A stretch of DNA of 64,000 nt from Calditrichaceae bacterium (GCA_050173015.1 JBFXLE010000010.1:46841-110840), one strand, 5' to 3'; shown: positions 13,157 to 46,709, numbered from the stretch's first letter. Notes: a model not told the origin generated them from the sequence alone. Numbers and translations are program-made.

Positions 13157-13693
13157 ATGAGCAAGGAATTTAAGAACCATCATTCAAATAAATTAGCGGG
13201 ATTTACAAAAGGCTCCATTCTTCTGAGCGCTATTGCCGGATTAACGGTTGGTCAGGCGCCGGAGAATGTCTTTGCCTATTCACCGCTGGGATCGGGAAGC
13301 GAAGTGAGAGAAGCGCTTTCATCTCTGAATAACGCGCCTAAAGCGCCGGCAGAACTCAAATGCGCGGGAGAGACTAAGAAATCCGCGGAGAAAAAAGCCG
13401 ATGCCAAACATGAGGCAAAGGAGATGAAGGATGCAAAAGCGGCCGAGGCAAAATGCGGTGAAGGGAAATGCGGCGAATCTAAAGCCGATATGAAAAAAGC
13501 CGGCGCGATAAAGGACAGCGCGTCAGTAGAATCGAAGGCGGCCGAAGCTAAGTGTGGTGAGGGTAAATGCGGAGAGGGAAAGTGCGGTGAGGGTAAAGCT
13601 TCCGATAAAAAGGCTGTAGATAAAAAAGCCGATGCGGTTAATGATTCAAAGGCAGCGGAAGCCAAGTGTGGCGAAGGTAAATGCGGACAATAA
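13157..13693 (+). CDS. secreted Cys-repeat (EGKCG) precursor protein, HvfA-like putative RiPP metallophore substrate
   Basis: 178 aa. Sec-type signal (GSILLSAIAGLTVG...VFA|YS). The mature part is Lys/Ala/Glu-rich with 8 Cys (aa 69, 100, 105, 133, 138, 143, 171, 176); seven sit in AEAKCGEGKCG(EGKCG) blocks. Synonymous codon variation between the blocks argues for selection on the peptide. It lies directly upstream of the DUF692 and DUF2063 genes. Confidence 0.8.
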   Translation: MSKEFKNHHSNKLAGFTKGSILLSAIAGLTVGQAPENVFAYSPLGSGSEVREALSSLNNAPKAPAELKCAGETKKSAEKKADAKHEAKEMKDAKAAEAKCGEGKCGESKADMKKAGAIKDSASVESKAAEAKCGEGKCGEGKCGEGKASDKKAVDKKADAVNDSKAAEAKCGEGKCGQ

Positions 13694-37811: not shown

Positions 37812-37824
37812 TTACGATGATCAT

Positions 37825-37867
37825 GCTATGATTGGGAACCCGATTTCCCGATCATAGCTTTTTTTTG
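37825..37867 (+). terminator. intrinsic terminator after the subtilase gene
   Basis: 13-bp stem GCTATGATTGGGA / TCCCGATCATAGC (one G-U pair), 8-nt loop, T8 run. Confidence 0.8.
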
Positions 37868-38268
37868 ATCTGATTTCCCCGCCCAAAAAATCAACCGGCT
37901 TCCATCAAAGAAAATTGTAAAAATCTAAAGCCGGGATCAATCTGAAAATCTTCATTGACAATCATGTGCAATTTATTACCGATTGCGTTGGAATGTAATA
38001 ATGAACCTTAAAATTGTCGAGGGTAACCCTTAGCGGAGAAAAGTAGGCAACCCGATTAACCTTATATTCATAGTTTTTAACCTGAGTAGCAAAATAACTC
38101 CACACCATTCATTTACGTTTCGGAATTGATGGTTGCCAGGCAATAGCACCGTACACATAATGGGTGTATCGTTTGTCAGACTAATTCCAAAGTCAATAAA
38201 GTAATAAGGTTTTGTGTTTTTGCTGATTTTATGCCACTAAGGTCAACAAGCAAAAATAAGGTCTATGA

Positions 38269-38544
38269 GTTTTGCATATCCGCGTGACAGATGAAATGGG
38301 TTATCTGCCTTTAGACCGTAATGTCACCAATCTCTTTTTTCAGTTGGAATCCCTCGTTACGAAAGGATCTATTATCCACACCGGCAATAAAAGTTACCTG
38401 GATTGGGGAATGCTGTTTCCGGACGAAGGGATTGTTGCGGCTATTTTAGATCAATTGTTTCATTATTCCAAAACGGTAAAAATCACCGGTCAATCATACC
38501 GCCTGGCGATGAAAAAGAAGGTGGGACTTTTTGAAAATAAGTAA
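38269..38544 (+). pseudogene. istB: IS21-family IstB (ATP-binding helper) C-terminal remnant
   Basis: The translation ...DEMGYLPLDRNVTNLFFQL...KGSIIHTGNKSYLDWGMLFPDEGIVAAILDQLFHYSKTVKITGQSYRL matches the C-terminal ~90 aa of IstB (..DE.GY.PLD...ANLFFQL...YE.GS.I.TSN..F..W...F.D......A.LDRL.HH......G.SYRL). The Walker A/N-terminal part, istA and inverted repeats are all absent. Confidence 0.7.
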
Positions 38545-38613
38545 AAATTTTTAACCAAAAGCGGGGAGTTTTAAATTCCGTTTTTTGGGGAAATGTAAAT
38601 TCCTCTTGACAAG

Positions 38614-38684
38614 GGATGAAATCTATGTAGAAAAACAGACACCACACCATTCCGCGGCCCCATAGGGGTCGAACAATTACAGCC
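38614..38684 (-). repeat. REP-like repeat copy A (TTCTACA module plus GC hairpin)
   Basis: GGATGAAATCTATGTAGAAAAA...CCGCGGCCCCATAGGGGTCGAACAATTACAGCC. It is homologous to copy B (38799-38869) and to 45427-45478 in the opposite orientation. Confidence 0.6.
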
Positions 38685-38798
38685 AAATCCCCATTTATAC
38701 AAAGATGTGACGCCTCGGGCGTCAGGTGTTTATCATATAACCAATATTTATACATCAACCCCGGGATTTAAACGCAACCGTCATTCCCAATCCCGGAT

Positions 38799-38869
38799 GG
38801 ATGAAATTTTTGTAGAATGATTAACACCAGACGAGTCCGCGACCCCGCAGGGGTCGTACAATTACCGCC
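38799..38869 (-). repeat. REP-like repeat copy B (TTCTACA module plus GC hairpin)
   Basis: GGATGAAATTTTTGTAGAATGA...CCGCGACCCCGCAGGGGTCGTACAATTACCGCC, with a perfect 6-bp hairpin GACCCC-GCA-GGGGTC. Confidence 0.6.
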
Positions 38870-38893
38870 TGACAGTTTGTACTCAACTCATGT

Positions 38894-41006: not shown

Positions 41007-41918
41007 TTAATCAAATACATTGTATTTTCTCTTAACATATTTTGCGCCCCAAAATGAAGTAAGATAATATGCCAAAGTTTTTAAATTTAGCTGAGACCGC
41101 AGGAAAAAAAATCTCGCTGTCTGCATATTATTCATCAGGTAATAATAACGCGCTATTGTTCCATGAATTTTTTTATACGAAGTTTTTACTTCTTTAGGAT
41201 AAACATTCATAAAGCCTTCAATAAACATAAGTGAGAAATAAAAATCTTTTCTGCGATAATCTTCATTCAGAGATAAATTAGTATCCGTCACATATCGATT
41301 ATATAATGAATCACATATCTCAATGGATGCTTTTTCATGAAACAGTCTCAAAATCCAATCGAAATCAACTATCCCAAAAACTTCTTCAAAAAGAATATCT
41401 TTCAGTTCTTTCCTATATATGATACCGCTTAAATACGTGTTTTGACCGGCTAATGATTTCGTTAATCTGTTTAAAAAGGTTGTGTTTGATTCAAAATATA
41501 AAAAATCAACTTTCGATTTGTTTATTTTATCGATTTTTCTATTCTCTTTTTCATTGATGACAGAATGCCCGGATGTGACGATAGGAACTTTCTCTAAATA
41601 GGGTAATTGTGAAAGTAATCTGTTTTCTTTCCATTCATCATCGTGATCAACGATACAGATATAGTCTCCGGAAGATTTTTTTATACCCATGTTTCGTCCT
41701 TTATTAGGGCCGCCGGAGTTTTTATCATTAGTTAATAAAAGTAGATCATAATTTTTAACTATCTCAACCGTTTTATCGGTCGAGCAATCATCAACTACAA
41801 TCAATTCGATATCAAATTCTTTTCGAAGACCTTTTTGATTTAAAATAGAATCCAGGGTTCTTTGAATGGTTTTTTCCGAATTGTATGTTGTAATTATTAC
41901 AGAAACTAATTTTTTCAT
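41007..41918 (-). CDS. family 2 glycosyltransferase
   Basis: 303 aa. VSVIITTYNSEKTI...LIVVDDCSTD...DHDDEW are GT-A fold GT2 motifs (DxD-type). Visibly AT-rich. Confidence 0.85.
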   Translation of the reverse strand: MKKLVSVIITTYNSEKTIQRTLDSILNQKGLRKEFDIELIVVDDCSTDKTVEIVKNYDLLLLTNDKNSGGPNKGRNMGIKKSSGDYICIVDHDDEWKENRLLSQLPYLEKVPIVTSGHSVINEKENRKIDKINKSKVDFLYFESNTTFLNRLTKSLAGQNTYLSGIIYRKELKDILFEEVFGIVDFDWILRLFHEKASIEICDSLYNRYVTDTNLSLNEDYRRKDFYFSLMFIEGFMNVYPKEVKTSYKKIHGTIARYYYLMNNMQTARFFFLRSQLNLKTLAYYLTSFWGAKYVKRKYNVFD

Positions 41919-42320
41919 CTTGTTTTTATCATACTTTATTAGCTGGATGCATTCAACGGGTTAAACTGACTATACTATTTATTTTATTTTAATAAAAATC
42001 ATCAATGGAATTCTATATTGTTTGCAGTACCTTTTTCGATATTTATATATAAATCTCTCTAAATTTCGAATCGGATTCTCCAAATACCATTGAATATATC
42101 TCAATTCCGTTTCTTGTTCAAGCAGTGAGTAAAACCCATGTCTTAGCTGACGCTATTTTTCAATTTTCCGGTCACCAATGTTCATGGTGTTTTATTATAA
42201 GCTGCAGTTTCTTCATTGTCTGAACTATGACCTGTCCGACTGTTATTTACTCTTTTTCTTTTTTCGTTTATCTTTTTTCTTAAGCTTCTCACGTCCTGCT
42301 TAGGCACGAACATCGTGCTC

Positions 42321-43680
42321 CTGCTCTTAACTCTTACACTCTATTCTCTTAACGCTCTTTAATTCTCACTTCCTACTTTTCTTCTTCTTCCTACTTCTTA
42401 CTTATATTCTTCCCGAGAAAGCAGAAGATCCTTCCAGGATGACTTTTCGGGAAGGCTGGATAAGGCATCTACTCTTAACTCTTACACTCTTTTCTCTTAA
42501 CGCTCTTTAATTCTCACTTCCTACTTCTTACTTCTTACTTTTCTTCTTCTTCCTACTTCTGACTTTTATTCTTCCCGAGTAAGCAGAAGATCCTTCCAGG
42601 ATGACATTTCGGGAAGGCTGGATAAGGCATCTACTCTTAACTCTTACACTCTATTCTCTTAACGCTCTTTAATTCTCACTTCCTACTTCTCACTTCCTAC
42701 TTTTCTTCTTCTCCCTACTTTTTGAATGGCCAAAAAGTAGCAAAAAGCCCTGGCGAATTTTAACTCGTTTAAATTTTTCCGTTTTTCTCATTCATCCACT
42801 CAGACAGAAAATTCGCCCCGAAGAATCATTTTTTCTACATCCTTCCAAGGTAGCCAAAGATGCCTTCGGCATGACATTTCGGGAAGGCTGGATAAGGCAT
42901 CTACTCTTAACTCTTACACTCTTTTCTCTTAACGCTCTTTAATTCTCACTTCCTACTTCCTACTTCTTACTTTTCTTCTTCTTCCTACTTTTTGAATGGC
43001 CAAAAAGTAGCAAAAAGCCCTGGCGAATTTTAACTCGTGTAAAAATTAACCGTTTTTCAATTTACTCCACTCAGACAGAAAATTCGCCTCGAAGAATCTT
43101 TTTTTCTACATCCTTCCAAGGTAGCCAAAGATGCCTTCGGCATGACATACGGATAGATTAACCGGTTTCACCGCGGTTGACTATGACATCGCCTGCCCGG
43201 ATTCAGACACCCCCACTCTTAACTCTTTTCTCTTAACGCTCTTTAATTCTCACTTCCTACTTCTTACTTCTTACTTTTCTTCTTCCTACTTCTAACTTTT
43301 ATTTTTCCCGAGTAAGCAGAAGATCCTTCCAGGATGACATTTCGGGAAGGCTGGATAAGGCCCCTACTCTTAACTCTTACACTCTTTTCTCTTAACGCTC
43401 TTTAATTCTCACTTCCTACTTCCTACTTCTTACTTTTCTTCCTCCCTACTTTTTGAATGGCCAAAAAGTAGCAAAAAGCCCTGGCGAATTTTAACTCGTG
43501 TAAAATTTAACCGTTTTTCAATTTACTCCACTCAGACAGAAAATTCGCCCCGAAGAATCATTTTTTCTACATCCTTCCAAGGTAGCCAAAGATGCCTTCG
43601 GCATGACATTTCGGGAAGGCTGGATAAGGCCCCTACTCTTAACTCTTACACTCATTTCTCTTAACGCTCTTTACTTTTCA
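42321..43680 (+). repeat. mosaic non-coding tandem array: 7 copies of a ~90-nt pyrimidine-rich core alternating with two linker types
   Basis: Cores (CTACTCTTAACTCTTACACTCT.TTCTCTTAACGCTCTTTAATTCTCACTTCCTACTTC...) start at 42321, 42469, 42631, 42901, 43214 (partial), 43364 and 43634 (partial). The short linker S1 (~65 nt; hairpin CTTCCCGA...TCGGGAAG) follows cores 1, 2 and 5. The long linker S2 (~180 nt; 9-bp and 10-bp inverted repeats) follows cores 3, 4 and 6. A unique insert lies at 43142-43213. The track shows no ORF of 60 aa or more in any frame across 41919-43683. Confidence 0.9.
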
Positions 43681-43683
43681 TTC

Positions 43684-44532
43684 TTATACTTCAATAAATC
43701 TCATAAATAGAAATATCAACAGGCCAAGGGTTGCTCCCAGATATATCCGGCGGATATATTTTCTTCCCTCTTCATTGGTGGATTTCACCAATCGCATAGA
43801 GGGATAAGCAATCGCGATATCCATTATTAAAATTGGTATCAAATAAACCATTGGAAACCAAGCCAATATAAATGGAACCATGGTTAGAAAAACAACAAAA
43901 AAGAAAATGGAGCTGCTTATTTGTAGCGCTGTTTGTTTTCCATATTTAATCGCCAGCGAATTTGAATCAATCAGAAGATCTCCCTGCATATCCATAGAAT
44001 CGGCTGCGATTTCTTCTCCTAAATCTATTAAGGCGGCGATGACGCCAAAAAACCAGACCATTTTATTAAAGGGTAAACCAACGGATACACCACCAAAAAT
44101 AAATGTCATCCCCACAGAAAAACTTACCATTAAATTTCCCGGTAACCCGCTTTTTTTAAATTTTCGGTTATAAAGAAATCCAATAATTGACAGTATAATT
44201 ATACAAATTAACGCTGTTAAACCAAGCAAATATCCAAGAATTATGCCGAGCGATAAAAGAATTATAGATAGTAATAGCGCTTCCTTCAGGGTAACAAGGC
44301 CTGAAGGTATGGGCCGGCCGGGTGAATTTATTTTATCCGTTTCAACATCGAAATAGTCATTTAATACCAGTATGGAGGCGGAAATAAAAAAGACCGCAAA
44401 AAAGGCGAATATTGTTTCAGAAGGGGATGCAAATCTTCCCAGGGCCAGCAACTGCCCCATAACAACACAGACACCTGCGGAAAATGGAAGTTCAAAACGC
44501 ATTAAACCGAATAGCCCTTTAATATTCTTCAT
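43684..44532 (-). CDS. UbiA-superfamily aromatic/polyprenyl prenyltransferase (DGGGP-synthase-like)
   Basis: 282 aa with about 8-9 TM segments. First Asp-rich motif LNDYFDVETDKINSPGRPIPSG, second acidic motif ...DLGEEIAADSMDMQGD. Confidence 0.8.
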   Translation of the reverse strand: MKNIKGLFGLMRFELPFSAGVCVVMGQLLALGRFASPSETIFAFFAVFFISASILVLNDYFDVETDKINSPGRPIPSGLVTLKEALLLSIILLSLGIILGYLLGLTALICIIILSIIGFLYNRKFKKSGLPGNLMVSFSVGMTFIFGGVSVGLPFNKMVWFFGVIAALIDLGEEIAADSMDMQGDLLIDSNSLAIKYGKQTALQISSSIFFFVVFLTMVPFILAWFPMVYLIPILIMDIAIAYPSMRLVKSTNEEGRKYIRRIYLGATLGLLIFLFMRFIEV

Positions 44533-44947
44533 AACCCTTCCACAAATTTGTTTGCAATGGTTTTTGTATGTGAGGCGGAATTTAGAATTCCCCGCTTGCT
44601 AAAGAAAGATTAAATTTCCTCCGTACCTGATCAATAACAGCAATATAGATGATTTAGGATAAGCCGGAGGAATATATGGAAATTTTTAAGCTAAAGGAAC
44701 AGGTTTTGATAATTTTCCTTATCAGCGGAAAAGATTCACCGGATCGCGAAAGTTGGACCAACACAGAGAACACCGAAAACAATGCCGGCGCCGAAAAAGC
44801 AGCATCGGAAAATATGATGTACATTACACCACTCCGGGTTTCCCCGAAGAACATATATCGCCCCTGTCAAAAAGAAATTCCGGGAAGAGAGGGTATCATT
44901 TTCCCGGAAAGTTTTAACCAAATACACCGATAGGAATTGACAGACCT

Positions 44948-45180
44948 ATTCCGGAGGGGAGCCTGAAACCGCGGAGGGAAGGGTCACATTCCGGAGGGAA
45001 GGTTCAAACTTCGGAGGGAAAGGGTACAATACCGGAGGGGAGCGGTCAAACTTCGGAGGGAAGGCGAAAAACTCTGGAGGGGAGGGGTATATTCCCGGAG
45101 GGAAGGGTAAAACTGTGGAGGGGACGCCTAAAATACCGGAGGGGAAGGTCAAAACAGGAAGGGAAGGGTAAAAATCGATG
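44948..45180 (+). repeat. eleven tandem ~20-22-bp repeats with a GGAGGG(R)A(R)GG core
   Basis: Units start near 44951, 44970, 44989, 45011, 45031, 45051, 45074, 45094, 45115, 45136 and 45157. The consensus is roughly YCGGAGGGRARGGKYMAAAMY. Confidence 0.9.
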
Positions 45181-45202
45181 CGCCGGGGGAAAATAATCAT
45201 AG

Positions 45203-45363
45203 CCCCGATCTTTAGATCGGGGATAAGGAGAAACCAAATAATGATGGGCTTCAGCTCAAATTTGGCTAAATCCATTTATATACGGAAATAAAATAATCCA
45301 CGAGCTGAAGCTCGTGGCAATGAGATTAAATTCCTGATCATTGCCACTATCTTTAGATAATGG
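45203..45363 (+). repeat. three covarying 8-bp-stem tetraloop hairpins (CCNNNNNC-loop-GNNNNNGG)
   Basis: CCCCGATC-TTTA-GATCGGGG (45203-45222), CCACGAGC-TGAA-GCTCGTGG (45298-45317), and CCACTATC-TTTA-GATAATGG (45344-45363, one mismatch). A degenerate fourth copy lies at 45399-45418. Confidence 0.7.
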
Positions 45364-45426
45364 ACCGGAAGCCCGGGATGGCTGGAGTATTTTGGATTCC
45401 ACGGGCTAAAACTCACGGCACAGGAT

Positions 45427-45478
45427 CGCGTGGGGTCTGTTTTTCTACAATGATCATCCCTTTGGAATTGGGAAACGG
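45427..45478 (+). repeat. REP-like repeat copy C (TTCTACA module)
   Basis: CGCGTGGGGTCTGTTTTTCTACAATGATCATCCCTTTGGAATTGGGAAACGG aligns with the reverse complement of copy B (..GGGGTCGCGG...TTCTACAAAAATTTCATCCATCCGGGATTGGGAATGACGG). Confidence 0.55.
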
Positions 45479-45644
45479 ATTGATGCGTTTTGTTAACTAC
45501 CTGGTTATCATAAACCTCTTGAAATTTTCATGCCGGTTGTTTATAATGGTAACGATTCTTGTATAGGATATTATTTTTTTTAACATTAGAGTAAAACGAT
45601 AATTAACAGGGACGTCTAATCAATATGTTAGTGGCTTCAATTTT

Positions 45645-45740
45645 GTCTCAGATGGCTGAAATGGCAAGGCATAACTGGAAACCAAGCCTGTTAAGCTTGG
45701 TGATAAGGTTACATTGCAGGTTCGAATCCTGCCTGGGGCA
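45645..45740 (+). ncRNA. tRNA-like element (non-canonical; Asn-type anticodon loop, canonical T-arm, oversized D and variable regions)
   Basis: T-arm GCAGG-TTCGAAT-CCTGC. A 7-bp acceptor-like helix GTCTCAG/CTGGGGC (2 G-U pairs) is extendable by TTTTGT/ACAAAA. Stem-loop CAAGC-CTGTTAA-GCTTG (anticodon GTT). The 5' region is about 11 nt too long, the variable region is 16 nt, and position 8 is A rather than U. Confidence 0.4.
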
Positions 45741-45780
45741 CAAAATGTAATATTTAAGAGGGAATGAATTTAATTTTTCT

Positions 45781-45948
45781 ATGAATATTTTTTTTCTACC
45801 ACTAGGTGACGGTGATGAAATTGGCACCAGCAGTTATTATTTACAAATTGGTAATACAAAATTATTATTAGATGCCGGAATAAGGCTAAAGGCATCGTCT
45901 GTTTTTCCAAAATATAACTATTTATATAGTAAGCCTCCCTACTCTTAG
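45781..45948 (+). pseudogene. truncated N-terminal fragment of an MBL-fold/beta-CASP-type hydrolase gene
   Basis: A 55-codon ORF (below the track cutoff) reads MNIFFLPLGDGDEIGTSSYYLQIGNTKLLLDAGIRL..., which fits the beta-CASP/MBL N-terminus (..LG...EIG.S.Y.L.....LLLD.G). It ends before any HxHxDH motif, exactly where the core-like repeat (CCTCCCTACTCTTAGC) begins. Confidence 0.55.
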
Positions 45949-45954
45949 CTTTTT

Positions 45955-46010
45955 TACTTCCTACTTCTTACTTCTTACTTCCTACTTCTTACTTCCTACT
46001 TCTTACTTTT
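45955..46010 (+). repeat. heptanucleotide microsatellite (TACTTCY)x8
   Basis: TACTTCC TACTTCT TACTTCT TACTTCC TACTTCT TACTTCC TACTTCT TACTTTT. The same heptamer tract is embedded in every core of the 42.3-43.7 kb array. Confidence 0.9.
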
Positions 46011-46018
46011 TCTCCTCC

Positions 46019-46047
46019 TTGACATCCCATCATAAAACGGGTAAATT
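46019..46047 (+). promoter_or_regulatory. candidate sigma-70 promoter of yigZ
   Basis: TTGACA (46019-46024), 17-nt spacer, TAAATT (46042-46047). It lies 45 nt upstream of ATG 46092 and immediately downstream of the heptamer tract. Confidence 0.4.
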
Positions 46048-46091
46048 TTTTTCTAATTTGCCAGACGTTCTTATAACATAGATCCGGAATT

Positions 46092-46709
46092 ATGAACACA
46101 GAAAACCTATCGGCCGATGAATATCTTGTACCGGCAATGACGGCCAACGCTGAAATCAAAGTCAAGGGTTCCCGATTTATTGCCGCCATTTTTCACGCGG
46201 AGACAAAGGAATCCGCCGAAGAACAGGTTCTGATTTTAAAAAAGACAAATTATAACGCGACTCATAACTGTTTTGCTTACAGGATCGATGGCAATCTCTT
46301 CCGGTATTCAGATGACGGCGAACCCTCAGGGACCGCCGGGAAGCCCATTTTACAAACAATTGACGGTCAGAATATATATGAAGTATTGTGTGTGGTGACT
46401 CGATACTTCGGCGGCACAAAACTGGGAACGGGCGGCCTGATACGGGCTTACTCGGAGGCGGCGGCAGAGGCTTTAAAACAATTGCGGTTAAAAGTGAAGG
46501 TCCGATCTGAACTAATCCGTCTGGGGCTGCATTATGAGCAGGAGAACATCATCCGGAATCTGTTGAATGAATTTAACGGGAAAATTGTGGACAGTGACTA
46601 TACCGATCAGATTAAAATGGATGTCTCTATCCCGGAAAGCCTGCGCCGGAATTTTGTAGAACGACTCACCGAAATCACACATTCAACCGTCACTGTGAAA
46701 TCCCTTTAA
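46092..46709 (+). CDS. yigZ: YigZ family protein (IMPACT/UPF0029)
   Basis: 205 aa. ...IKVKGSRFIA..., ATHNCFAYRI and DDGEPSGTAGKPIL are the conserved IMPACT-N motifs. Confidence 0.85.
   Translation: MNTENLSADEYLVPAMTANAEIKVKGSRFIAAIFHAETKESAEEQVLILKKTNYNATHNCFAYRIDGNLFRYSDDGEPSGTAGKPILQTIDGQNIYEVLCVVTRYFGGTKLGTGGLIRAYSEAAAEALKQLRLKVKVRSELIRLGLHYEQENIIRNLLNEFNGKIVDSDYTDQIKMDVSIPESLRRNFVERLTEITHSTVTVKSL

Follow-up and report, generated by a model that had tools for sequence, protein, structure and literature searches.

A modular repeat array with strain-level turnover upstream of yigZ in a Calditrichaceae bacterium

We analyzed a gene-free repeat array of ~1.5 kb in a 64,000-nt stretch of a Calditrichaceae bacterium genome (GCA_050173015.1 JBFXLE010000010.1:46841-110840; hereafter the window). 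The array is the largest local accumulation of a modular intergenic repeat family. Seven cores of ~85 nt each, all in the same orientation, are interleaved with linkers S1 and S2, and an eighth core (45938-46018) lies beyond a 2.3-kb block that carries a UbiA-family prenyltransferase gene. The neighboring genes encode GT2, an FkbM methyltransferase, LysE, a glyoxalase, UbiA, YigZ and an ABC transporter. A first-pass annotation, made from the sequence alone, had the feature begin at 41919; positions 41919-42218 turned out to be ordinary unique upstream DNA, 80% identical in the orthologous locus L004 (loci from other assemblies carry L numbers), and repeat-derived DNA begins at ~42219. The parts of the array and the genes at the edges of the block are as follows.

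42219-42248, + strand: internally deleted remnant of a ~95-nt element family with terminal inverted repeats (TIRs; GTCTGAACTATGA...GGTTCAGAC), including the start of a nested mini-hairpin insert
42249-42320, + strand: T module, with T-rich heptads (TCTTTTT/TCTTTTA) leading into a short TACTTCY-like tract and, at 42303-42319, the hairpin GGCACGA-ACA-TCGTGCT
42321-42393, + strand: core A, with a degenerate 5' end
42394-42468, + strand: linker S1 copy 1, with junction J1 at its end
42469-42555, + strand: core B, made of (ACTCTTA)-type heptads, then CTCTTAACGCTCTTTAATTCTC, then (TACTTCY)3, then CTTTTCTTCTTCTTCC; minimum free energy (MFE) 0.0 on both strands
42556-42630, + strand: linker S1 copy 2
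42631-42714, + strand: core C
42715-42900, + strand: linker S2 copy 1, made of S2a (42715-42800), P (42801-42877) and J1 (42873-42898), with a variable stretch inside the 10-bp inverted repeat
42901-42984, + strand: core D
42985-43148, + strand: linker S2*, made of S2a and P, without J1
43149-43213, + strand: module J2, a conserved alternative junction with 94-96% identical copies in L001 (5676-5717), L002 (6614-6668) and L004 (3271-3335)
43214-43288, + strand: core E, with a 9-nt deletion
43289-43363, + strand: linker S1 copy 3
43364-43445, + strand: core F
43446-43633, + strand: linker S2 copy 3 (S2a, P and J1), sharing a 104-nt exact repeat with copy 1
43634-43696, + strand: core G, with a variant 3' half; it gives the last UbiA codons and TAA (minus strand) and is the left edge of the block absent from L004
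43684-44532, - strand: UbiA-family prenyltransferase gene (Pfam PF01040, E = 8e-38)
45781-45948, + strand: 55-aa open reading frame (ORF) with its TAG stop within core R and no Pfam hit
45938-46018, + strand: right-end core R, made of CTACTCTTAGC followed by seven TACTTCY heptads, adjoining the -35 of a YigZ promoter-like site (46019-46047)

Alignment of the seven units with MAFFT gives the order core-S1-core-S1-core-S2-core-S2*-X-core-S1-core-S2-core, as assembled, with a partial last core. Order and core coordinates reproduce those of the first-pass annotation, to which core R is an addition. Some parts had to be redrawn: the stretch X (43142-43213), called unique, is module J2; S2, taken as one linker, does recur but is a composite of S2a, P and J1; and the stop codon of UbiA, thought to lie 3 nt from a truncated last core, lies inside that core variant. 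The inverted repeats of the linkers are exactly where they had been placed, namely the S1 stem CTTCCCGA/TCGGGAAG (42571-78/42609-16), the 9-bp CTACTTTTT/AAAAAGTAG (42715-23/42732-40) and 10-bp GGCGAATTTT/AAAATTCGCC (42752-61/42808-17) inverted repeats of S2 and, also in S2, the hairpin ATGCC-TTC-GGCAT (42860-72). The 28-nt core signature CTCTTAACGCTCTTTAATTCTCACTTCC has six exact copies, against 0.00 in 100 dinucleotide shuffles, and the junction GACATTTCGGGAAGGCTGGATAAGGC (J1), already recognized as common to both linkers, has five against 0.00 expected. Dimers of the TACTTCY heptad match 17 times against 0.1 expected, all within 42.39-43.44 kb and 45.96-46.01 kb. Tandem Repeats Finder, a check suggested with the annotation, returned a unit with a 162-nt period and many period-7 arrays.

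The cores had been described as ~90 nt long and almost pure pyrimidine. They measure 73-87 nt and are 83-85% pyrimidine, both below that description, but their near-lack of G stands (1-2 G and 12-14 A per core). The heptad tracts (ACTCTTA)n, (TACTTCY)n and (TCTTTTT)n are strand-asymmetric, with the pyrimidines on one strand, and are joined by a fixed 22-nt signature. TACTTCY recurs one to seven times per tract, one to three times in the internal cores and seven times in core R, and L006 holds a pure (ACTCTTA)10 tract.

This strong purine/pyrimidine asymmetry, short mirror repeats such as CTCTTTTCTC and TCTTCTTCT, and the proneness of the locus to rearrangement would suit an H-DNA or triplex polypurine-polypyrimidine scaffold acting via non-B DNA, one of the proposals of the first-pass annotation; triplex motifs are associated with genomic instability (PMC4666352). 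However, the pyrimidine strand of the cores is broken by an A about every 7 nt, pure pyrimidine runs in the array reach at most 17 nt and are unexceptional next to the 18-19 nt of other window sequence, and the array holds no long perfect mirror repeat. A triplex scaffold is, in our estimate, the most improbable explanation of those considered here. What survives of that proposal is a heptad number that does vary, both among the internal cores and at the right end, where core R has seven heptads in the window and two at the orthologous position in L004 and L015.

The array appears to be non-coding. No ORF of 60 aa or more had been seen between 41919 and 43683, and the longest start-to-stop ORF there indeed has 45 aa. 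Stop-free stretches of 96 and 89 codons occur on the pyrimidine strand, which is intrinsically stop-poor, and are not conserved in L004 or L022. A hidden, frameshifted protein gene was rejected, as each frame contains 15-50 stops and long open stretches are found only on that stop-poor strand. We also rejected a mini-ORF in the P module (MSCRRHLWLPWKDVEK...), raised by two synonymous substitutions in L002: its stop is unconserved, and it reads into different modules. As the first-pass annotation had concluded, this is not a clustered regularly interspaced short palindromic repeat (CRISPR) array, since the repeats are 73-87 nt long, the "spacers" S1 and S2 each recur three times and occur at other loci, and no cas genes adjoin the array. 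An integron attC array is not indicated either, with non-palindromic cores and no integrase among the neighbors scanned; attC, parS and a replication origin or terminus were all set aside, as no features support them.

A tandem family of structured small RNAs (sRNAs) had been put forward as well, in which each core-plus-linker unit would be an sRNA gene or a processed piece of a long non-coding RNA (ncRNA). Perfect stems of 8-10 bp recur along the array, the S2a stems are unchanged in five copies while the loop that they enclose diverges, and the position downstream of UbiA in the window might allow co-transcription. On the other side, Rfam searches at gathering level matched only tRNA-Val in the whole window, and 41800-46200 gave nothing relevant even at E <= 10. 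Promoter-like sites (sigma-70 consensus only) number 14 against 10.5±2.9 in shuffles and intrinsic-terminator-like sites 5 against 4.3±2.3, none of either kind recurring per unit. Compared with shuffles, the folding z-scores of whole units are -1.3 and -1.9 (+ strand) and +1.1 and -0.2 (- strand), and those of linkers alone -1.0 to -1.6; the hairpin of the T module is the sole notable fold (-3.3 / -2.2). The stems vary little, and the variation present breaks pairing: S1 carries an uncompensated G->A in L007, L010 and both L022 copies lack the 3' half of its stem, and its inner hairpin is weakened in L022. No compensatory changes were found (no covariance model was built), and the invariant S2a stems show either constraint or recent common origin, without covariation. 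Unit composition, moreover, differs between strains. The supposed richness of the minus strand in GGA motifs did not hold up (37 observed, 40.7±5 expected from base composition), and a CsrB-like reading of the main array was rejected on this ground. We consider an array of sRNA genes very unlikely.

The modules are dispersed over related assemblies. In a scan of 185,579 species, each represented by one genome, a core 20-mer matched a single metagenome-assembled genome (MAG), Calditrichaceae bacterium JBFXGD01, at two loci unrelated to the window locus, and a metagenome scan added nine further stretches with the core. Ten module consensus sequences were mapped on all loci: core, (TACTTCY)n, S1, S2a, P, J2, the T module (consensus hairpin GGCACGA-NCA-TCGTGCC), GG, Q and a neighboring 21-nt repeat, which served as mapping control and matched the window only. 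The search for other copies, also proposed at the outset, thereby located the same modules, 90-100% identical, at ~15 independent intergenic sites, in varied orders and, relative to the contig, in either orientation. Within one array, all modules share one orientation. The host sites lie between ordinary genes, which Pfam identifies as uvrB/purD, IMPDH, a CHASE2 adenylate cyclase, ABC-transporter components and a GFO/IDH/MocA oxidoreductase. In the window itself, no other copies of the array modules were found outside 41.9-46.1 kb.

The further repertoire of these sites comprises a mini-hairpin of ~25 nt (CCCGCC-N4-GGCGGG), the ~95-nt TIR element and the G-rich palindrome GG. The mini-hairpin is nested in S1 (L004 and L022) and in the TIR element (L009 and L006). 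Full copies of the TIR element occur in L001, L007, L009 and L003, with a differently deleted copy at the equivalent position of L004, and the T module recurs in L001 (four tandem copies), L004 (two copies), L006, L009, L010 and L022. P also occurs without S2a (L004 3194, L001 and L002) in what looks like an "empty" form; the right arm AAAATTCGCC belongs to P, and no target-site duplication (TSD) accompanies it. These observations bear on the earlier suggestion of nested, MITE-like insertions (MITE, miniature inverted-repeat transposable element). The interchangeable dispersed linkers, the nested mini-hairpin, the TIR remnant at 42219-42248 and a beta-CASP-like gene fragment (below) agree with it, whereas the inverted repeats of S2, which had been read as terminal, are internal, the composite is not bounded by TIRs, and no TSD was seen at the module junctions.

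Two other repeats were noticed in passing. The GG module is a long palindrome (GCCCTTCCCCTCCCTTATGCATAAGGGAGGGGATAGAGGGGAGGGG; L001 5514-5602 and 5807-5895, L002 6452-6536, L022 804-876) with four G-runs, so that one strand could form a G-quadruplex. P2, a related hairpin repeat (...GTTCGACCCC-N4-GGGGTCGCGG...GTTTTTCTACA...CATCCC...), has two copies in the window at 38611-38870 (-), in an ORF-poor gap (37812-38893), and also adjoins cores in L006, L007 and L009.

We compared the same locus in other genomes. Both flanks of L004 (JACDJC010000460) are 96% identical to the window and carry the same GT2 and yigZ genes. The L004 array measures 1.1 kb and reads T-core-S2a-Q-T-core-P-J2-core-S1(nested mini-hairpin)-core, with no UbiA block. 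Because L004 has an array but no block between the same flanking genes, positions 43634-45937 of the window represent an extra block inside the array. Core R is the true right end: it is orthologous to the last core of L004, with which it shares a TTAGC variant, and its orthologs with two heptads lie at L004 3488-3555 and L015 428-490. In L015, the right flank is 99.85% identical and an 83%-identical UbiA allele lies to the left of the last core. As a side observation, a 365-nt spacer (L015 63-427) between that allele and the last core has no match in the window or in the other fetched loci.

Another sample of the same species, L013 (Logan SRR36359525; flank 99.35% identical), carries an insertion sequence (IS) of the IS3 family in its T module, at a position equivalent to window 42285-42287. 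This element spans 90-1348, contains HTH_Tnp_1 and rve ORFs and has the ends TGTGGACAC. We rejected it as the mobilizer of the TIR element, the ends of which (GTCTGAAC) are unrelated. In the sister species represented by L022 (yigZ 92% identical in aa, flank 88.7% in nt), an array of at least 1.03 kb extends upstream of yigZ to the contig end, in three to four composite units of ~297 nt, each made of a core, a CCCCCTTTGAAAGGGGG hairpin, T, heptads, S1 and a new junction. Its polarity is that of the window, a core R ortholog is present, and the same final tract adjoins the -35. In four genomes, the heptad tract stops ~10 bp upstream of the yigZ -35. The distant Calditrichaceae locus L023 (yigZ 60% aa) has an AT-rich intergenic region of 80 nt and no array. 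Compared across L004, L013, L015, L022 and L023, the array proves clade-specific and of long standing at this site, with remodeling at the scale of strains.

Repeats of this kind raise the question of an assembly artefact, either a mis-join or the expansion of collapsed dispersed repeats. Short-read Logan contigs of identical sequence break at 42282 and 43624, i.e., at both array edges, many related contigs also end in these repeats (L001, L006, L007, L008, L012, L013, L014 and L022), and the internal order and copy number are those of the window assembly. The sequence is identical to Logan contigs from SRR27751817. Nevertheless, the independent assemblies L004 and L022 have arrays at the same locus, and other contigs confirm the UbiA-core junction (L012) and the first core (L013). 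In addition, no unit is without private variants, and exact internal repeats do not exceed 104 nt. The chance that the array is an artefact is in our view slight.

The block at 43634-45937 (2.3 kb) takes in core G and UbiA as well as a tandem array of 21-nt units, a structured non-coding stretch, a tRNA-like sequence and the 55-aa gene stub, and is flanked on both sides by CTACTCTTA(A/G)C. Residues 3-53 of the 55-aa ORF align with residues 4-56 of beta-CASP N-termini (CPSF73/IntS11), a weak but consistent match (E = 0.015-1), and this likeness makes the ORF a probable N-terminal remnant of a metallo-beta-lactamase nuclease of the beta-CASP type. Because it combines this N-terminal likeness with termination in core R, it looks like a gene truncated at a repeat-mediated breakpoint, in line with the earlier remark that a core-like copy appeared to have cut off a gene at 45.94 kb.

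Other parts of the block deserve mention in their own right. At 44950-45173 (+), ~10 tandem units of 20-22 nt (consensus (A)CTTCGGAGGGAAGGGTCAAA) have no Rfam match and an array fold z-score of -0.6; each unit could form a 4-bp stem (CUUC/GAAG or UUCC/GGAA) with GGAG(G) in the loop, an architecture like that of CsrB/RsmZ sponges, and the opposite strand is CCUCC-rich. The stretch at 45180-45430 is strongly structured (z = -3.7 on + and -4.0 on -), with several perfect hairpins (CCCCGATCTTTAGATCGGGG, GTGGCAATGA...TCATTGCCAC) and a terminator-like site on the - strand (45317-45298), and may be an unannotated ncRNA. The tRNA-like sequence at 45645-45741 (+) is called "tRNA-???" with a 4-nt anticodon by ARAGORN and falls below the threshold of the Rfam tRNA model. 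Inspected by eye, it shows a perfect T-arm, an acceptor stem of 7 bp that includes two G-U pairs, an oversized D region, a long variable arm and a stem-loop CCAAGC/CUGUUAA/GCUUGG with an Asn-GUU-type anticodon loop; it is possibly a pseudogene or the remnant of an integration site. Elsewhere in the window, an ORF at 13157-13693 contains internal direct repeats of 45-47 nt (13375-13690, +) that encode ...AEAKCGEGKCG..., i.e., a Cys/Gly-rich repeat protein.

Repeats also reach into genes. Six gene 3' ends out of six have their stop codon within the purine-rich strand of the repeat, in the same orientation each time: UbiA in the window, uvrB in L002, two genes of L006 (for an adenylate cyclase and an ABC permease) and two ORFs of L010 (Pfam confirms five of the six genes). 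Stop contexts include ...GAAGTA[TAA]GAATG, ...GGAAG[TGA]GAAGTAGG and ...ACGAAG[TAG]GAAGTAGG. Between zero and ~8 terminal codons per gene derive from the repeat, and in uvrB the UVR motif finishes three residues ahead of the repeat-encoded tail. The (TACTTCY)n strand has no stops at all; each purine-strand heptad carries TAG, TAA or TGA, with a stop in any frame within ~21 nt. As 7 = 1 mod 3, RGAAGTR or TAAGAGT heptads offer stops in all three frames, and fusion to a gene end would therefore be harmless in the purine-rich sense orientation only. This supply of stop codons is the simplest explanation for the orientation at the six genes. Given the small number and this explanation, we do not take the 6/6 bias as proof of function.

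The same polarity could instead reflect a polar transcription barrier, in which each unit would act as a Rho-loading site followed by a pause hairpin, so that transcription in the pyrimidine direction (antisense or read-in) would stop while purine-rich sense transcription would pass. A published heuristic for Rho-dependent terminators looks for a 78-nt C>G Rho utilization (rut) site followed by a pause hairpin (PMC6407284). As + strand RNA, a core would be ~80 nt of unstructured, C-rich and nearly G-free sequence (C/G ratio 12-30, MFE 0.0 on both strands), and the eight cores are the eight top-ranked C>G 78-nt windows of the 64 kb, with C/(G+1) of 11.5-14.5 against 4.6 for the next best and 3.0 at the 99th percentile. 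GC-containing linker hairpins follow the cores within 150 nt, and such a pairing of an unstructured C>G window with a hairpin is found on the + strand only. The rut-like strand is antisense at 6/6 gene 3' ends and at 5/5 co-directional gene pairs, and the array has the same polarity upstream of yigZ in two species. However, the match is one of composition, the orientation bias (n = 6) is explained equally well by purine-strand stops in all frames, the L004 array sits between divergent promoters with no obvious incoming + strand transcription, and the polarity is opposite in L001b and L010c. We regard such a barrier as unlikely, although it is the alternative that we would weigh most seriously. 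Slightly less probable still, and again suggested by composition, is a broader proposal in which the repeats would have been domesticated as one-way transcription valves that also provide stop pads for all three frames and homology arms for exchanging cassettes. Each core with its hairpin would then be optimal for Rho loading and pausing on one strand and resistant to Rho on the other. If so, the family would shield gene 3' ends and promoters genome-wide from antisense and read-in transcription, and the seven-fold array would act as a "super-insulator" that separates the glycosyltransferase operon from the yigZ-ABC operon.

A further possibility is that the 7-bp direct repeats serve as cooperative binding sites of a regulatory or nucleoid-organizing protein near promoters. 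Heptads are bound by ribbon-helix-helix (RHH) regulators of the omega type or by centromere-binding proteins. By analogy, the end of the tract ~10 bp from the yigZ -35 would be suitably placed, and (TACTTCY)5-7 occurs in five IMG/VR contigs beside iteron-like repeats and the promoter of an RHH-like gene. Yet no protein emerged as a candidate binder, the heptads vary freely in sequence and number, many of the tracts lie at gene 3' ends and not at promoters, and the viral match, to a 20-mer of low complexity, may be a coincidence. We hold protein-binding heptads to be quite unlikely. Viral contigs gave no match for the core, T or P modules, and a BLAST search of plasmid and phage collections with the linkers gave none either; the five viral contigs matched by the heptad 20-mer offer an unrelated context and are probably convergent low-complexity sequence.

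Those viral contigs (L017-L021) have a conserved non-coding region of their own, with (TACTTCY)5-7 (e.g., L020 7680-7730). A GC-rich hairpin, TATATA, the heptads, iteron-like (GGATAACCTACC)n, an AT-rich tract and a TTGACA...TATATT promoter follow one another, and the genes come next, a small RHH-like gene (MADRVLISVPADTNDKVEKLAEK...) and then a conserved protein of 200-330 aa. The region looks like a phage or plasmid origin or a partition/regulatory region.

Modular, dispersed and co-oriented, turning over between strains and species and fused to stop codons, the repeats are best read as a large, fast-evolving cluster of Calditrichaceae-specific modular interspersed elements that is non-coding and not an array of sRNA genes, a reading to which we give a rough probability of 60%. 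The locus would be a recombination hot spot instead of a set of small-RNA genes. Replication slippage may lengthen and shorten the heptad tracts, as proposed from the seven versus two heptads of the orthologous right-end core. Between co-oriented cores, near-identical over 50-100 nt, unequal crossover, gene conversion and segmental duplication could yield tandem core-linker units; we propose this because units C/F and B/E are near-identical and because of the 104-nt exact repeat. Small palindromic modules would nest in, or substitute for, each other, and repeat homology would allow the exchange of whole blocks, here the 2.3-kb block of UbiA, tRNA-like sequence and truncated nuclease, at a site that also appears to tolerate IS insertion. 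Arrays might then expand up to functional sequence, which would be why they adjoin promoters and why gene 3' ends run into them with the purine-rich strand as sense. From these patterns we infer slippage, crossover and insertion as mechanisms, and the absence of a dedicated cellular function.

Several observations weigh against this interpretation. The array is kept upstream of yigZ in two species despite full remodeling of its units, and its persistence could reflect selection for composition or polarity, not mere regeneration. The invariant S2a stems with their diverging loop are compatible with a constrained hairpin or a recognition site, and the C>G skew of the eight cores is an extreme, not neutral-looking composition within 64 kb. 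No transposase, REP-associated tyrosine transposase (RAYT; REP, repetitive extragenic palindrome) or TSD demonstrating mobility was found in the 64 kb of this genome and the ~100 kb of related sequence examined.

A cluster of interspersed repeats nonetheless remains our preferred reading, and it has practical consequences. The repeats break short-read assemblies of this lineage, and their stop-free strand gives rise to spurious ORFs. They are markers of hypervariable sites at which gene blocks, here UbiA, are gained or lost between near-identical strains, and they change the terminal codons of housekeeping genes, uvrB for example. If the extreme rut-like composition were functional, it would provide a natural case of orientation-specific transcription insulation spread by a repeat. 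This modular repeat family is previously undescribed, and no other had been reported from the little-studied phylum Calditrichota; the paper on the genome of Caldithrix abyssi mentions only an 18-nt REP-like palindrome and nothing resembling the pyrimidine-heptad family (PMC5317091). The architecture is unusual, with co-oriented, almost G-free heptad tracts alternating with exchangeable hairpin modules.

Among known systems, these intergenic head-to-tail repeats of ~100-300 nt recall the NsiR1 sRNA arrays of Nostoc/Anabaena. Each NsiR1 unit has its own promoter, an intrinsic terminator and a conserved fold, none of which was found per unit here. In MITEs and very small nested repeats, such as the small dispersed repeats of cyanobacteria, hairpin or TIR modules are inserted in other repeats, and the presence/absence polymorphism of modules in our family is similar (S2a before P; the mini-hairpin in S1). 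Unlike for MITEs, S1 and S2 were not shown to have an autonomous partner, a TSD or defined termini, and the ends of the L013 IS3 element are unrelated.

The bacterial interspersed mosaic elements (BIMEs) of E. coli (PMC2817692) are likewise intergenic mosaics of a recurrent unit and a few linker types, restricted to a species or genus. BIMEs are built from GC-rich palindromic REPs of 20-40 nt that alternate in orientation and are linked to RAYTs, whereas the cores are non-palindromic, ~85 nt long and in direct orientation. Heptameric simple sequence repeats (SSRs) are over-represented in the intergenic DNA of some bacteria (PMC4692102), and the cyanobacterial short tandemly repeated repetitive (STRR) sequences and the GGGAATC/GGGGAYT heptamers of Xanthomonas/Nostoc share with our tracts tandem 7-nt intergenic units and strand asymmetry (PMC4692102). 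As with the heptameric SSRs of Nostoc, Calothrix and Xanthomonas, close relatives vary in length and sequence, often near an ORF end (PMC4692102); our period-7 units are also intergenic, head-to-tail and polymorphic in copy number. The STRR and Xanthomonas heptamers are simple, G-rich and G-quadruplex-forming, while three pyrimidine heptads in fixed order are combined with hairpin modules here.

BOX elements of S. pneumoniae and S. suis (boxA-(boxB)n-boxC) vary in size through slipped-strand mispairing and unequal crossover and may be nested (PMC3049150). There is no sequence relationship with BOX, and the dominant module here is an unstructured pyrimidine heptad tract, with all copies co-oriented. 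BOX elements have terminal inverted repeats, target-site duplications and a whole-element fold, whereas no TIR or TSD was found for the array, which at ~1.5 kb also exceeds the reported BOX range of 67-637 bp. In other respects, the two families behave alike: a few module types are permuted in intergenic composites (~15 sites mapped), internal modules are amplified in tandem, composites cluster and nest, gene ends are modified, and length varies widely between strains, with module number and composition differing at one locus between the window and L004, L015 and L022.

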